From an uncultured beta proteobacterium (lineage in GTDB: Bacteria; Pseudomonadota; Gammaproteobacteria; Burkholderiales; SG8-39), in contig CAWEPV010000010.1 in the NCBI GenBank assembly GCA_963811085.1, forward strand, positions 35,399-99,398: 64,000 bases of DNA, read 5' to 3'. Under the pieces are notes generated by a model that was given only the letters and a program-made list of their open reading frames with translations, ran no database searches and had not been told where the DNA came from. Each line of letters begins with the position of its first letter. Position 1 is the first letter of the stretch. Of this stretch, positions 26,924 through 57,309 are shown one piece after another. Position numbers and translations under genes: made by a program.

Positions 26924-28792
<1,869 letters not shown>

Positions 28793-28850
28793 TCCGACGG
28801 ACCCGCTCTTGCGTCAATTGCTTGCTGATCCGGAGTGGCTCTTTCGCAAT

Positions 28851-28874
28851 GTCCGCTTTCGGCCAGAAGCAGAC
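28851..28874 (+). repeat. REP-like hairpin repeat, copy R1
   Basis: GTCCGCTTT-CGGCCA-GAAGCAGAC imperfect stem-loop; related to copies at 29965 and 31082. Confidence 0.55.
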
Positions 28875-29136
28875 TCTGGCATGTCGCCCTCGCCGCCCGA
28901 AGAATCGGCTCAACACTTCGCTTGCCTGTTGCCAGGCATAGCCGTGTCTCCAAAGGGATTTGGACCCTTTATGACCGAGTTCGTCCTGCTGCCCGAGGTT
29001 CTGCTTCAGGCGACAGATGACTGGTGGGCTCGCAGTTGTCAATTTGTGCTGCCACTCGCTCGTGCGCAAGAGCGCTGAGGCGCACCCGTGAAGTTAGTGA
29101 TGCTCTCATCGGGCGAAGGTATGCTACAAAACCGAT

Positions 29137-29931
29137 ATGGAATCGTGGCCGCAAGATTTGATCTATCGCCGTACTGCGTCCGGCGACAAGGCGTTGCTCT
29201 CGAACGATGCGAAAGTTCCCCCTGAGTACCGCCGGATTCTTGGGGTAATGGAAGGGGTAACACACGCGGATATCATCCGGGGACTCCTACGACAATTCCC
29301 GGATGAGCTGCTGGGAGACTGGCTGTCCGAGATGGAAGAGGTTGGATTTGTCGTTTCAGCTCCCGCTGACCCGACCCATGATCTCGACTTTACCGGCCCG
29401 ACGAGGAAGGCGCAGGTCGAACCGAGAGTCGTGACGCCGGACGATACAAATCGGCTCGAAAGGCAGGCGCTTGCAGCCCGCTCGGCGCTCAATCGTGCAG
29501 GCGCCTATCTCTCTCCGGACCGTCTCGCAAACCGCCAGCCGCTTGCCAAAGTCCCGGGCGAGATCGCGGTCCTGATCGTGGAAGACGACCCGGACCAGGC
29601 AGCTTTGGCCAACTTGCGGGTGAGCGCGGGAGGTTACTCCGTCCGTATCGCACGAGACTGCAAAGAGCTGGTTGCGGACATTGGCGCGCGCGCGGTTCCG
29701 GATTTAGTTTTGCTTGACGTCATGCTGCCGGACGGCAACGGTTTTGACATGCTGACGAGCATCCGGCGCCACCCGAAACTCGCCTTGCTCCCGGTCGTAA
29801 TGCTGACGGTGCTGGCCAAACCCGAAGAGGTGCGACGCGGCCTTAGCCTCGGCGCCGACGGCTACATCACCAAGCCCTACAGCAAGAGAGTCCTCACTGA
29901 GATCATTCGCAGCGTCCTCAAGCACGGCTAG
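29137..29931 (+). CDS. Orphan response regulator: uncharacterised N-terminal domain + C-terminal receiver domain
   Basis: REC motifs VEDD, LLDVMLP, MLT, YITKP; N-terminal ~90 aa resemble 57019..57309. Confidence 0.88.
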   Translation: MESWPQDLIYRRTASGDKALLSNDAKVPPEYRRILGVMEGVTHADIIRGLLRQFPDELLGDWLSEMEEVGFVVSAPADPTHDLDFTGPTRKAQVEPRVVTPDDTNRLERQALAARSALNRAGAYLSPDRLANRQPLAKVPGEIAVLIVEDDPDQAALANLRVSAGGYSVRIARDCKELVADIGARAVPDLVLLDVMLPDGNGFDMLTSIRRHPKLALLPVVMLTVLAKPEEVRRGLSLGADGYITKPYSKRVLTEIIRSVLKHG

Positions 29932-29964
29932 CGGGGCGAACGCAGCCGAAGGTTGGCGCACTAA

Positions 29965-29990
29965 CGTCTGCTCTGGGTCGAGAGCGGACG
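29965..29990 (+). repeat. REP-like hairpin repeat, copy R2
   Basis: CGTCTGCTCT-GGGTCG-AGAGCGGACG stem-loop. Confidence 0.6.
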
Positions 29991-30001
29991 CTCATGATCC
30001 G

Positions 30002-30187
30002 GTTGAGCCGCGACCCACACTCCAGCACGTCACACCCTGAACCGACGGCGCCGAGCGTAGCTGCTGGAACTGCACGCACTCGACGGGCTACGACGGTGAA
30101 CACCTGTGGTGCGAGCACCACCGACAGGTGGTTGTCGACCCGTGCGGCTGGTGGAAACGTGACGCGGGGTGCGATCCGAACGATTAG
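30002..30187 (+). pseudogene. Cys/Trp-rich microprotein copy A, with in-frame TGA at 30038 and no clear start codon
   Basis: Frame reads VEPRPTLQHVTP*TDGAERSCWNCTHSTGYDGEHLWCEHHRQVVVDPCGWWKRDAGCDPND*; homologous to 30722..30825. Confidence 0.55.
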
Positions 30188-30216
30188 TTCGCTTTAGATA
30201 TCTTCAGCTGAGCGCC

Positions 30217-30243
30217 AAAAACAAACGGAAGCCGAAGCTCCCG
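30217..30243 (-). terminator. Rho-independent terminator
   Basis: Minus strand CGGGAGC-TTCG-GCTTCCG followed by TTTGTTTTT. Confidence 0.7.
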
Positions 30244-30360
30244 ACTGGGGTTTCCGCCCGGCTGAATCAAGCTGCAAGTGAGTTCTGCTTCCGGGGACGC
30301 AGCACGAAATCCATCAGACCGTGGCCCGCGTCGTACGACCGGCAGCGAGTGGGCGTTGTC

Positions 30361-30522
30361 CTAATGCAGGGCGCGACCTAGACGTTGTAGCGCTCTTTCT
30401 GCTTCTTCTTCGAGGTCGTCCTCTGACATGACCGCAAGCGACATCGCCACAACACCGACCAAGCATCCAATCATCAGACAAACAATCACTATCCCAACAA
30501 TCGCTAACCCGATAGTGCTCAT
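30361..30522 (-). CDS. Single-TM microprotein (53 aa), below the ORF-track cutoff
   Basis: GGAGG RBS + ATG; MSTIGLAIVGIVIVCLMIGCLVGVVAMSLAVMSEDDLEEEAERALQRLGRALH. Confidence 0.6.
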   Translation of the reverse strand: MSTIGLAIVGIVIVCLMIGCLVGVVAMSLAVMSEDDLEEEAERALQRLGRALH

Positions 30523-30721
30523 TCTCACCCTCCAGTCTACGGTCGTTACGGATCTGCAAGGACCTAGACTGATAAGAGGAACGCAATGTTTGTGCCAAAA
30601 ATGCTAGAACTGGTCAATCAAACGATTAGAGGGAATCATTAAAGCGATCCGGAAATTCCGCCGTCGCCTTAGCCCGACATAAATAGAGGCCAATACTTTC
30701 CTTAGCGACGTCACTCAGGCG

Positions 30722-30825
30722 ATGCACTCGAGTGGCAATAGCGGCGTGCACCTGTGGTGTAAGCAGTGTCGGCTGGTCGTGATCGATCCCTGCGGTTGTT
30801 GGGCGCGCCGCGCGGGGTCGACTAG
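30722..30825 (+). pseudogene. Cys/Trp-rich microprotein copy B, 5'-truncated with a 1-nt deletion near the end
   Basis: HSSGNSGVHLWCKQCRLVVIDPCGCWARRAG aligns codon by codon with copy A. Confidence 0.5.
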
Positions 30826-31001
30826 GGAAGAGCCCGCACGGCTTCGCTCGCCCTCTTTTGCGCACGCTCAGCCACGATCTCATCGTAGCACTCGGCGCAC
30901 ACGGCCCGTTCTCCCTTTGCTCCAGGCAGTATTCGGAAGGTCGCGCGCGGCTTGGCGTGCTGGCCGTGAAAACAGTATTTCAGTGGATTGAGGTTCGTCA
31001 C
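30822..31001 (-). CDS. Putative Zn-binding microprotein (59 aa)
   Basis: GTG start; NLNPLKYCFHGQH...AVCAECYDEIVAERAQKR gives a C-x4-H...CxxC ligand pattern. Confidence 0.55.
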   Translation of the reverse strand: MTNLNPLKYCFHGQHAKPRATFRILPGAKGERAVCAECYDEIVAERAQKRASEAVRALP

Positions 31002-31081
31002 CGTATGTTGCCGATCATGCGCGCCGATTGCACGTGCGCAGATGCGACGATGATCGCAAACATAAGGAAGCATCTATGGTC

Positions 31082-31105
31082 GACCGCTTCGGGTCGAAAA
31101 CGGTC
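31082..31105 (+). repeat. REP-like hairpin repeat, copy R3
   Basis: GACCGCTTC-GGGTCG-AAAACGGTC; same GGGTCG loop as R2. Confidence 0.55.
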
Positions 31106-31158
31106 ATGCAACGGCGACGCGCGGACCGGAATAATTCGACTCTGACCCCGATTACCGA

Positions 31159-32802
31159 TTACGGTTCGAAGCGGTCGAGGACCTCGCCCGGGCCGGACTC
31201 GAGGCGCAGGTAGTCGGTGCCGTCGAACACCTGCTGGCCGTTGACCCACACCCCGGCGACGCCCTTGGGGCGGCGGATCACGCGCGTGCCGCCGCCGGGC
31301 AGGTCAGCGACGCGCTCGAGCGGCGACACGCCGACCGCGAGCGGATCGAACAGGAGCAGGTCGGCGCCGAAGCCCGGCGCGATGCGGCCGCGCCCGGCGA
31401 TTCGGTACTTCGTCGCCGGGTCGCTGGTGAGACGGCGCACGCCCTCCTCCAGCGTCAGGGTCTCGGTGTCGCGCACCCAGTGCCCGAGCAGGTGCAGGCC
31501 GAAGCCCGCGTCGCACAGGAAGATGAGGTGCGCGCCCGCATCCGACAATGCGACCACTCCCGCCGGGTGCCTGAGCAGCGGCGCGACGCCCGCGTCGTCG
31601 TTCTGGAACAACTTCGCCACCAGCGGCGTGTCGATTGGGAGATCGAAGAAATAGTCGAGCGGGTCCTTGCCCGCCTCGCGCGCGAGGTCGGTCAGTGGCG
31701 CCCCCGCGGCCTCGACCTTGCTCCAGTCGCCGTAGAACAGAATCCCCTTGCCCGGGTGCGCCAGGTTGTCGCGGAAGCACGCGCGGAATTCGGGGTCGGC
31801 GTAGATCGCGGGCAGATCCTCTGGTTTCGCCCGCCGCACCGCCTCAAACGCGTCGTGCGAGTACATCAGGTACGGGTCCTTGAGCGTGAAGTCGAACGAC
31901 AGCGGCTGGCAGCTGGTGTGGATATAGACTTCGTGCCCGCGCGCGATCGCCGCGGCGCATTTTTCGTAGTAGGTCAGCGCGCGGCCCGGGTCGGCGTGGT
32001 TGTGCATCGTCAGGACCGTGACCATGAAGGCCGGGCGGCCGGTGTCGGCAGCGATCGATTCCATAAACTCGGGCGTGGCGCGCGAGCCGGTCGCCACGAC
32101 GAACACGCCGCGCCGCGCCTCGCCCAGCGCGCCTGCGAGGATCTTCATCTCGTCGTCGGTGGCGATGGTCGATGGCATCGGCCGCCCGCCCCAGCCGCTG
32201 TGGTTGGGCGAGAACGACGAGGCGAAGCCGATCGCGCCGGCGTCGAGCGCCTCGCGCACCAAAGCCCGCATCAGCGCGATTTCGTCCGCGCGCGCCGCCG
32301 AGCGGGTCGAGGCCTCCTCGCCCATCACCGCGGTGCGGATGGTCGAGTGCTGCGCCAGCACCGCGACGTTGGCGTACAGGTGTGCGCGGCGCAGCTGCGC
32401 CAGGTACTCGGTGAAGGTCTCGAACTCCCAGCGCGTGCCCGAGAGCAGCGCCTCGAGGTCCATGCCTTCGACCACCGACAGGTTGCGCACCATCGTCTCG
32501 CGCATCGGCGCCGGGCACGGCGCGATGCCGAAGCCGCAGTTGCCGAGCACAACGGTGGTCACCCCGAGGGAAGGCGAAGGCGAAAGCGTCGGGTCCCAGG
32601 TCGCCTGCGCGTCGTAGTGCGTGTGCACGTCGACGATGCCGGGCATCAGCGCCAAGCCGTCGGCGTCGACGATTCGCCGCGCGCCCTCCTTCACCCGCCC
32701 GACCGCGGCGATGCGCCCGCCCGCGACCGCGACGTCGGCGCGCGCGCCGGGGCGCCCGCTGCCGTCGTACACCGTCGCGCCGCGAATCAGCAGGTCGTGC
32801 AT
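31159..32802 (-). CDS. N-acyl-D-amino-acid deacylase family amidohydrolase
   Basis: PGIVDVHTHYDAQ, GVTTVVLGNCG, SDAGAH, ADLLLFD. Confidence 0.9.
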   Translation of the reverse strand: MHDLLIRGATVYDGSGRPGARADVAVAGGRIAAVGRVKEGARRIVDADGLALMPGIVDVHTHYDAQATWDPTLSPSPSLGVTTVVLGNCGFGIAPCPAPMRETMVRNLSVVEGMDLEALLSGTRWEFETFTEYLAQLRRAHLYANVAVLAQHSTIRTAVMGEEASTRSAARADEIALMRALVREALDAGAIGFASSFSPNHSGWGGRPMPSTIATDDEMKILAGALGEARRGVFVVATGSRATPEFMESIAADTGRPAFMVTVLTMHNHADPGRALTYYEKCAAAIARGHEVYIHTSCQPLSFDFTLKDPYLMYSHDAFEAVRRAKPEDLPAIYADPEFRACFRDNLAHPGKGILFYGDWSKVEAAGAPLTDLAREAGKDPLDYFFDLPIDTPLVAKLFQNDDAGVAPLLRHPAGVVALSDAGAHLIFLCDAGFGLHLLGHWVRDTETLTLEEGVRRLTSDPATKYRIAGRGRIAPGFGADLLLFDPLAVGVSPLERVADLPGGGTRVIRRPKGVAGVWVNGQQVFDGTDYLRLESGPGEVLDRFEP

Positions 32803-32806
32803 CACC

Positions 32807-33496
32807 TCAATCGCCGGTGGGAGAGATACGGAACTCGAGCACGCCCTGCGCATTCATCAGGGCCTCCGAAAGCCGGCGCAGATTGTCCGGTTCGAGGGTG
32901 CGGATCATCATGCGGTATTCGAAGTGCCGCCCTTCGTCGGTCAGGCGGTAGCTGAGGTTGGCGATGGTGAAGTCGAATCCACCGACCAGCCTGCGCAGCT
33001 CAGCCGCCGACATCGGCGCCTCGCGCGCAAAGCGCAGCGTGAAGTGAGCGTAGGACTGGGTCGGCATCCGGCTCTCGAGCCAGCGGAACGCGGATAGCGT
33101 GCCGAGGGCCATCGCCGCGGCCAGCGCCGCGGGGAAATAAAAGCCGATCCCGACCAGCGTGCCGATCGCCGCGGTGACCCAGATCGACGCGGCAGTCGTC
33201 AGCCCGCGCACCGACAGGCCTTCCTTCATGATCACGCCGGCGCCGAGAAAGCCGATTCCGGTCATGATGCCCTGCGCCATGCGGGTGGGATCGATCGTCA
33301 CGCGCGCCGTGGCGTGCGGCCCGAACCACTGGCTTTCGTACACAGTGACGAGCATCAGCAGCGCAGAGCCAAGGCACACCAGCGCGTGAGTGCGGAAACC
33401 GGCCGGGCGGCCGTGGTAGCTGCGCTCCAGCCCCACCAGCCCGCCAAACACGAGCGCCACGATGAGGCGCAGCGTGATCTCCGGATAATCGCCCAT
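32807..33496 (-). CDS. MgtC/SapB family protein
   Basis: GLER...AGFRTH, GIGFLGAG, GLTTAASIW. Confidence 0.93.
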   Translation of the reverse strand: MGDYPEITLRLIVALVFGGLVGLERSYHGRPAGFRTHALVCLGSALLMLVTVYESQWFGPHATARVTIDPTRMAQGIMTGIGFLGAGVIMKEGLSVRGLTTAASIWVTAAIGTLVGIGFYFPAALAAAMALGTLSAFRWLESRMPTQSYAHFTLRFAREAPMSAAELRRLVGGFDFTIANLSYRLTDEGRHFEYRMMIRTLEPDNLRRLSEALMNAQGVLEFRISPTGD

Positions 33497-57022: not shown

Positions 57023-57309
57023 TGCTTGCCGAGCAGCTCTGAAATCTTGAAACTGCCGGTGAAATCGAGGTCGCTCTCGGGCGCGGCCGGCGATGATTCA
57101 AGCAGATGCAAGCTTTCGAGCTGCACCAGCCAGTGTTCGATCTGCGCGTCGCCGAAGTCACGCAGCAAAGCGCGGATCGAATCGGGGTGGGTATCTTCGG
57201 CGATCATTCCCAGGATGCGCCGGCACTGCACCGACAACCCGGGATTTCTCTCTTCCCAGGCTTTCTGGCCGGCCTCAGTCCGCCGATAGATTCTGTCGCT
57301 CGTTGCCAT
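57019..57309 (-). CDS. Hypothetical protein; standalone homologue of the N-terminal domain of 29137..29931
   Basis: Shared IYRRT..G, RRILG, TH.D.IR.LLR.F.D, WL..(L/M)E, DLDFTG. Confidence 0.8.
   Translation of the reverse strand: MATSDRIYRRTEAGQKAWEERNPGLSVQCRRILGMIAEDTHPDSIRALLRDFGDAQIEHWLVQLESLHLLESSPAAPESDLDFTGSFKISELLGKH

Follow-up and report, generated by a model that had tools for sequence, protein, structure and literature searches.

A low-GC islet behind htpG and a family of palindromic sites that may bound exchangeable small genes

The window considered here is a stretch of 64,000 nt from an uncultured beta proteobacterium (contig CAWEPV010000010.1; the genome is called G000 below). 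In it, htpG and a convergent amidohydrolase gene are separated by a low-GC islet that harbors three short palindromes, and the question raised by this locus is what these palindromes do: they might capture small genes on the spot, they might delimit gene modules that are exchanged elsewhere, or they might be ordinary intergenic repeats of a donor chromosome. The first answer had been given in an earlier, sequence-only reading, which described the locus as a possible cassette-like capture array whose hairpins, likened to repetitive extragenic palindromes (REPs), would be recombination sites acted on in trans. This idea is partly supported, in that sequence comparison points to exchange sites at module boundaries that were imported at htpG. 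At other loci, segments between sites of the same family have been replaced, duplicated to other arrays or are missing, and the breakpoints lie at the sites. The islet is, on balance, probably a decaying imported block from a modular gene pool bounded by dyad-symmetric exchange sites. Its own sites would be relics that arrived with the cargo, neither resident docking sites nor an active capture array.

The islet behind htpG and its palindromes

The islet comprises 2,340 nt with a GC content of 0.59, compared with 0.68 and 0.70 in the 2-kb flanks, which agrees with the lower GC noticed at first sight. The three hairpin sequences lie where they had been reported, at 28851, 29966 and 31082 (copies 1 to 3; Table 1), and their common orientation is confirmed, since all three score higher on the plus strand. 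The claim that they form one family fared less evenly. A covariance model (R1) trained on 93 sites, all of them from genomes other than G000, finds copies 1 and 2 strongly (28846-28879, E 1.7e-8; 29961-29994, E 1e-7) and copy 3 weakly and marginally (31077-31110, with E 0.02 when the window is searched and 1.2 for the genome as a whole); the next-best window match is partial (E 0.26). The copies fall into two classes, copy 1 belonging to class B (core CGGCCA) and copies 2 and 3 to class A (core GGGTCR). The core of copy 1 matches B sites of Lysobacter, and this copy is a singlet with no upstream A partner. A fourth, degenerate copy proposed near 28800 had to be given up: it has no R1 hit, a fold z of 0.11 against shuffles and no alignment to the A site. 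A search of Rfam 15 returned no real match, the sole hit being a chance-level PhrS (E 0.67), and an intrinsic terminator scan flagged only 30226-30246 on the minus strand, with no T run behind any of the three sites.

Genome-wide, R1 recognizes about six sites, while a consensus scan with up to 3 mismatches yields seven against none for the reversed control. All seven copies are intergenic and lie at most 200 nt downstream of a gene end. Every G000 site is a singlet, and no partner sites were found at the far borders of the other islands of this genome. Three of the six sites fall inside 2.25 kb, for which the chance expectation is ~2e-5. That the hairpins are palindromes which arose by chance in GC-rich DNA is, then, scarcely credible: copy 3 and the supposed copy at 28800 are weak, as that explanation would have it, but the R1 E-values of copies 1 and 2 (1e-7 to 1e-8), the empty reversed controls and the clustering speak against it, and for copies 1 and 2 it is already refuted.

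The sites do not coincide with the ends of the islet. The junctions appear instead as two copies of a 9-bp direct repeat, CGCGCGGAC, and the outer hairpins are subterminal, 64 and 21 nt inside these junctions, which corrects the earlier placement of the sites at both borders. Terminal inverted repeats of the islet were considered and rejected: apart from the two outer family sites nothing aligns (score 24, compared with a shuffle mean of 14.5 and a maximum of 26). A near-empty allele occurs in a salt-marsh metagenome run (X3), where a contig joins 28787 to 31130. Because of this allele, a right end that the islet seemed to have in common with two relatives (G006 and G013) turned out to be native spacer, and the true junctions are placed at the CGCGCGGAC repeat. 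At 31148 this spacer carries a 7-nt tandem duplication (CGATTAC) that is present neither in the X3 allele nor in G006 or G013.

The comparison with empty loci, suggested beforehand, identified five same-genus genomes without the islet. In four of them (G010, G002, G008, G016) the stop codons of htpG and the amidohydrolase gene abut (...CTCGAG TAG/TCA...), and in the fifth (G001) they are separated by 14 nt. The final five codons and stop of the window htpG (ARADS*) are unlike those of relatives, which end in ...LLE*. G013, an unpublished genome on which this point depends, shares with the islet no more than its initial ~45 nt. Further congeners contain different DNA after htpG (G003; G006/G014; G004/G015/G011), which makes the 3' side of this gene a hot spot. 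As the sequence-only reading had stated, no integrase or transposase domain lies within the islet (Pfam and PHROG searches), and no copy of the islet occurs in 72,556 plasmids. Elsewhere, the genome encodes three integron integrases (TIGR02249; G000:C3:485771-486715, G000:C13:102696-103640 and G000:C3:2153-3094), adjoined by low-GC cassette stretches and attC sites. Judged from these sequence comparisons, the islet is horizontally acquired DNA inserted between htpG and the amidohydrolase gene.

Exchange at sites of the same family

The family consists of 24-34-nt palindromes in which a conserved asymmetric core of 6 bp stands between 9-12-bp inverted arms, (AAT)GTCCGCTTT and AAAGCGGAC(ATT). 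The core reads GGGTCA or GGGTCG in 120 of 165 matches, with AAT...ATT flanks. That hairpins of this family delimit exchangeable cargo, the central supposition of the earlier reading, is borne out at other loci. At a second locus of the genus, G015 and G004 have the same flanks and the same A/B pair around unrelated cargo of 438 and 815 nt, respectively. In a hand count, which involves small numbers, the flank-side arms of the two genomes agree at 10/12 and 9/9 positions and the cargo-side arms, which are less well conserved, at 6/11 and 7/9. At the same locus, G011 contains different DNA beside the B-class site, up to the contig end, and G012 has neither the cargo nor the second site. A third locus lies between two convergent genes that abut in G014 and G012. 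Here G010 carries a 1.19-kb insert; an A-class site opens it, immediately at the stop of the left gene, and a B-class site lies within it at a distance of 507 nt from its right end. The G000 locus falls on two contigs and has a B-class site 78 nt away from the right-hand gene. In G004, G015 and G007, 5-13 kb are present at this place.

In Lysobacter the sites form arrays. Co-oriented junctions, each made of an A site, ~35 nt and a B site, follow one another ~370-610 bp apart in low-GC stretches, with at least 10 per array; in the direction of the site strand, an array consists of B, cargo, a variable number of A-spacer-B-cargo units, and then A. Module open reading frames (ORFs), crudely called, lie opposite to the A-site strand in 31 of 35 scorable cases (52 A sites examined). 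The cargo encodes DUF695 and DUF6714 proteins, a regulator of the OmpR type and a product that weakly matches Imm41, and most ORFs have no family. Four of 16 inter-locus Lysobacter homologies of at least 150 nt break off 0-7 nt away from site edges on both sides and in both loci, and the neighbours of these four are unrelated. One of the four is a module of 1.47 kb that occurs twice in one genome at 96% identity. The same handedness, B...A, is found in 4 of 4 bounded islands examined (the window, L203, L205 and Telluria L181). One A-B junction from Lysobacter has no copy in the plasmid set. In Lysobacter soli (G045:C22; L175, 9125-9222) a module array stands directly behind the glmS terminator. 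The terminal A site of this array plus 17 nt matches 41/41 the end of an array at another locus of another Lysobacter species (L192, 9601-9641; G046).

Such co-oriented arrays of small ORFs resemble cassette arrays, and the sites could in principle be unusual attC sites, with the islet a cluster of attC sites lacking an integrase (CALIN) that is served by the three integrases of the genome, which are full-length IntI (469-477 bits, cut-off 265). At copy 2, alone among the three, CTAAC precedes the site, and GTTGAGC follows 12 nt after it. However, the real attC sites of this genome measure 83-89 nt and have CTAACGT...GTTAG ends; the palindromes have no R''/R' boxes, as had been noticed before, and at copy 2 CTAAC and GTTGAGC are complementary only in AAC/GTT. 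IntI above the cut-off occurs in none of the four site-rich genomes G045, G041, G042 and G043 (completeness not given), and the attC sites of Xanthomonadales are of the aadA/aadB class in the portion of PMC8352920 that concerns them. An attC origin is accordingly rated very improbable.

An exact-pattern scan with one genome per species found at least 147 loci. Among the matches listed are Alpha-, Beta- and Gammaproteobacteria and a few other phyla; the genera include Pseudolabrys, Henriciella, Brevundimonas, Rhizobium and Sphingomonas in the first class, Telluria and Ramlibacter in the second, and Lysobacter, Dyella, Rhodanobacter, Pseudoxanthomonas, Stenotrophomonas, Luteimonas and Pseudomonas in the third. 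Exact matches on both strands number 3 in G044 and 11-32, clustered, in G041, G042, G043 and G045. Within the genus of the window, 9 of 16 genomes have a site, with 0-7 copies each and none in reversed controls; the reversed-pattern control was likewise zero in all 46 genomes scanned. Of 18 further sites in relatives, 13 lie at a local GC below 0.62, and windows of this kind make up 9.5% of G000. As a text string in the literature the motif matched only unrelated primers, and the listings returned for REPs combined with islands, or for palindromic integrase-independent cassettes, held nothing on the site family.

The REP-like nature proposed at the outset does not hold in the sense of elements moved by a REP-associated tyrosine transposase (RAYT, a Y1 transposase). 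The palindromes are intergenic, form doublets in Lysobacter, and G000 does encode two Y1_Tnp genes. Nevertheless, no Y1_Tnp was found in the same four site-rich genomes, no R1 hit lies within ~1.5 kb of the two G000 Y1_Tnp genes or of nine DUF559 genes, and copies number from single figures to tens, not hundreds. REPs or REPINs mobilized by RAYT, and equally the ends of an IS200/IS605-like or DUF559-nuclease cassette, are therefore very improbable explanations.

Cargo of the islet

The response regulator is the sole clearly intact cargo gene of the islet (Table 1). Its GC at third codon positions is 0.71, compared with 0.92 in the flanking genes, and it is 75% identical in amino acid sequence to a paralogue at C13:1266338-1267129. 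Full paralogues are located at C13:1266338, C11:399037 and C3:143146, and a further gene of the window (~57034-57297, minus strand) contains the unknown N-terminal domain at 42% identity over 88 aa. Metagenome contigs of runs X1 and X3 join position 29887 back to 29137; this joint may reflect a regulator gene present in tandem or on a circle, or else a chimera between paralogous regulators.

The remainder is mostly gene debris, and no Pfam or PHROG family was assigned to the small ORFs of the islet. Pieces of it are found again, alongside family sites, in other islands of G010, G012, G015 and G000: these are the cysteine-rich gene, of which the islet has two broken copies, the stretch 30225-30818 and the 83-aa ORF. 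A stretch homologous to the 83-aa ORF lies in an island of G015, and intact versions of the cysteine-rich gene, 66-89 aa long, occur in islands of G012 and G015. The latter gene has no Pfam or PHROG family and just four homologues in a large protein collection. Its products follow the pattern FTPW...C.TC.H..GYDG.HLWC..HRLV..PC..WERGAGCD, which recurs in low-GC islands of the genus; besides the two window copies (30041-30186 and 30722-30826), loci include L188:1894-2094, L190:15468-15737, G000:C3:349648-350411 and G000:C13:1404924-1405013, the copies in G000 being mostly broken. A metatranscriptome contig of 168 nt is identical to 30309-30476, which hints only weakly at expression. Another low-GC island of G000, L026 (G000:C3:349200-355000), with two broken cysteine-rich genes, adjoins a tRNA-like sequence and a gene for a ~430-aa tyrosine recombinase. 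This island, in which no family site was found, is probably an integrative element.

Table 1. Features of the htpG-amidohydrolase locus (positions in the window; A and B denote site classes)
Feature	Position	Strand	Evidence or remark
htpG (Hsp90)	26924..28792	+	Pfam HSP90, 433 bits; likely start
Left 9-bp direct repeat CGCGCGGAC	28778..28786	.	Islet junction
Low-GC islet, read as imported	28787..31126	.	GC, relatives' empty loci, X3 contig, direct repeat
Class-B site GTCCGCTTT-CGGCCA-GAAGCAGAC	28851..28874	+	Left bracket of response-regulator module; R1 36.0 bits
Orphan response regulator, ~140-aa unknown N-terminal domain + REC	29137..29931	+	Pfam Response_reg, E 1.2e-22
Class-A site GTCTGCTCT-GGGTCG-AGAGCGGAC	29966..29989	+	Right bracket of response-regulator module; R1 33.4 bits
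Cys-rich small-gene fragment C.NC.HSTGYDG.HLWC...PCGWW, no start codon	30041..30186	+	
Terminator-like stem + T run, downstream of 55-aa ORF	30226..30243	-	
55-aa ORF, one predicted membrane helix	30361..30528	-	No Pfam/PHROG family at E up to 0.01
Second, degenerate Cys-rich gene copy	30722..30826	+	
83-aa Cys-containing ORF	30822..31073	-	Lar-like PHROG hit, weak (E 0.003)
Weak class-A site GACCGCTTC-GGGTCG-AAAACGGTC	31082..31105	+	21 nt inside right junction; R1 16.2 bits
Right 9-bp direct repeat CGCGCGGAC	31118..31126	.	Islet junction
Native spacer AATAATTCGACTCTGACCCCGATTAC... beside amidohydrolase	31127..31158	.	Common to G006, G013 and X3 allele; outside islet
Amidohydrolase, convergent with htpG	31159..32853	-	Pfam Amidohydro_3, E 1.9e-28

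Origin of the islet, rival readings and known systems

In the proposed course of events, one block would have landed in the short spacer between the convergent genes, and this landing would have left the 9-bp direct repeat and given htpG its new stop codon. The module still intact in the window would be B (28851), response regulator and A (29966), followed by a second stretch of debris that ends in the weak A site (31082). The exchange itself may be a conservative recombination centred on the 6-bp core, as in dif modules or integron cassettes, carried out by a candidate recombinase encoded elsewhere; alternatively, RecA may act on the repeats. With no recombinase nearby, any such enzyme must act in trans.

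Several observations weigh against this account. The changes could be due to ordinary homologous recombination at the repeats or in the flanking DNA, and no recombinase lies within ~5 kb of the Lysobacter arrays. The stems show no covariation (0.083, compared with 0.080 for shuffles), and at one stem position 15 C.A mismatches face 3 compensated pairs. This leaves both the hairpin and the protein-site reading unproven; the palindrome appears to be conserved as sequence, like a dyad-symmetric protein site or a young repeat. Copy 2 folds as a DNA hairpin (-9 kcal/mol, z -3.2), copy 3 folds in part (z -2.1, marginal), and copy 1 fails to form the expected structure (z -0.8). Between classes A and B, 19/24 positions agree when they are aligned directly and 20/24 when one is inverted, a difference too small to orient them relative to each other, and inverted, REPIN-like doublets are not claimed. 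The response regulator of the islet lies on the A-site strand, which is the minority arrangement. At the junctions, the CGCGCGGAC repeat could be due to chance (~0.02 by the author's estimate) or to microhomology, and the X3 joint is one contig with 90% likeness and a 30-nt side. Finally, a site is present at the htpG locus in 0 of 12 relatives, which indicates that the sites arrived inside imported DNA. With the islet's own junctions at the 9-bp repeat, outside the hairpins, and a cargo consisting mostly of debris, this absence also speaks against the capture array that had been envisaged in situ at htpG.

A related difficulty comes from three alphaproteobacterial metagenome-assembled genomes, in which 2-5 tandem copies lie 5-22 nt behind the stop codons of ordinary genes (for an ABC-binding protein, a GAF kinase and VKOR), in the manner of REPs and bacterial interspersed mosaic elements (BIMEs). 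This behaviour keeps alive a rival in which the palindromes are ordinary REP/BIME-type 3'-end elements of the donor, serving as mRNA stabilisers, terminators or protein-binding sites, and the cargo turns over by general recombination. On this view they would play no part in recombination, and their position at gene ends would be the sole reason why they fall on module borders. The intergenic position of all seven genome copies within 200 nt of a gene end, the orientation bias relative to the upstream gene (31:4) and the lack of a nearby recombinase are equally in keeping with it. On the other hand, no T run follows any site. The sequence, including the 6-nt 'loop', is near-identical across proteobacterial classes, which a mere stem-loop would not need, and the cores fall into two discrete classes whose order is fixed. 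Moreover, the cargo is replaced exactly between a resident pair whose cargo-side arms are the more divergent, and in this genus the copy number is very low (0-7) and the sites lie in foreign DNA only. This rival is considered possible but rather unlikely.

Exchange at dyad-symmetric sites thus being the preferred reading of the family, a broader proposal can be made, although it is a tentative one that may well prove wrong: the palindromes would be the recombination sites of a widespread, undescribed, integrase-independent cassette system with two site classes of fixed 6-bp core, its enzyme, perhaps a housekeeping one, being encoded elsewhere. If so, small genes, among them those for immunity-like proteins, regulators and membrane peptides, would be inserted, excised and shuffled at convergent-gene junctions and in arrays of Lysobacter, the genus of the window, Telluria and many Alphaproteobacteria, and integrons and dif modules would have in this system a chromosomal counterpart that relies on a site chemistry of its own. 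Exchange points of this kind would give many proteobacteria, next to integrons and Xer-dependent dif modules, a third way to assemble and reshuffle arrays of small accessory genes without a linked integrase, and would account for small low-GC islets between convergent genes. They would also supply a sequence tag, (AAT)GTCCGCTTT-GGGTCR-AAAGCGGAC(ATT), with which such islets may be found, and a tractable question, namely which protein acts at the 6-bp core. What the window alone would contribute is modest: a decaying imported islet with one extra response regulator.

Comparison with known systems places the family between several of them. In Neisseria, short inverted repeats (dRS3, in neisserial intergenic mosaic elements, NIMEs) and 'minimal mobile elements' flank variable segments, whose exchange is thought to proceed via recombination after DNA uptake. 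The inverted repeats around variable segments are alike in both cases, while sequence, taxa and array structure differ. With REP, BIME and REPIN elements, so far as the relevant parts of PMC3116915 and PMC3337134 describe them, the family shares intergenic 3'-end palindromes, occurrence as singlets, doublets and clusters, and an orientation bias. Unlike these elements, as portrayed there, it has no RAYT link and a low copy number, its sequence is common to several classes instead of being lineage-specific, and it brackets exchangeable genes.

The likeness to integron cassettes lies in the co-oriented arrays of small, low-GC, mostly unknown ORFs, each followed by a structured repeat. Arrays without an adjacent integrase, and single cassettes common to otherwise unrelated arrays, are also features of CALINs. 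In contrast to attC, the sites have no RYYYAAC/GTTRRRY boxes and do not form a long imperfect single hairpin (57-141 nt), and in contrast to integrons the family is present in genomes with no IntI above the cut-off and in Alphaproteobacteria. In Acinetobacter plasmids, dif modules are bounded by pdif sites (XerC-6 bp-XerD), according to the section of PMC13141974 devoted to them. As outlined in that section, pdif sites are ~28 bp long with two ~11-bp arms and a 6-bp spacer, a layout that the alignment of the family sites reproduces; one or a few accessory genes lie between a site pair, modules are reshuffled among arrays, the gene for the recombinase lies elsewhere, and two site classes or orientations alternate along an array. 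The family arms, however, bear no likeness to dif, which in G046 is the AT-rich CGCATAATGCATATTATGTAAAAT; in G000, G010, G045 and G058 no dif was found at up to 3 mismatches to an approximate consensus. Unlike Acinetobacter dif modules, the family sites are chromosomal, their arms are near-symmetric so that only the core confers polarity, and every second 'module' of an array is just a ~35-nt spacer. By analogy, the architecture of the sites appears closest to the dif modules of Acinetobacter plasmids, and their function would be closest to that of integron cassettes.

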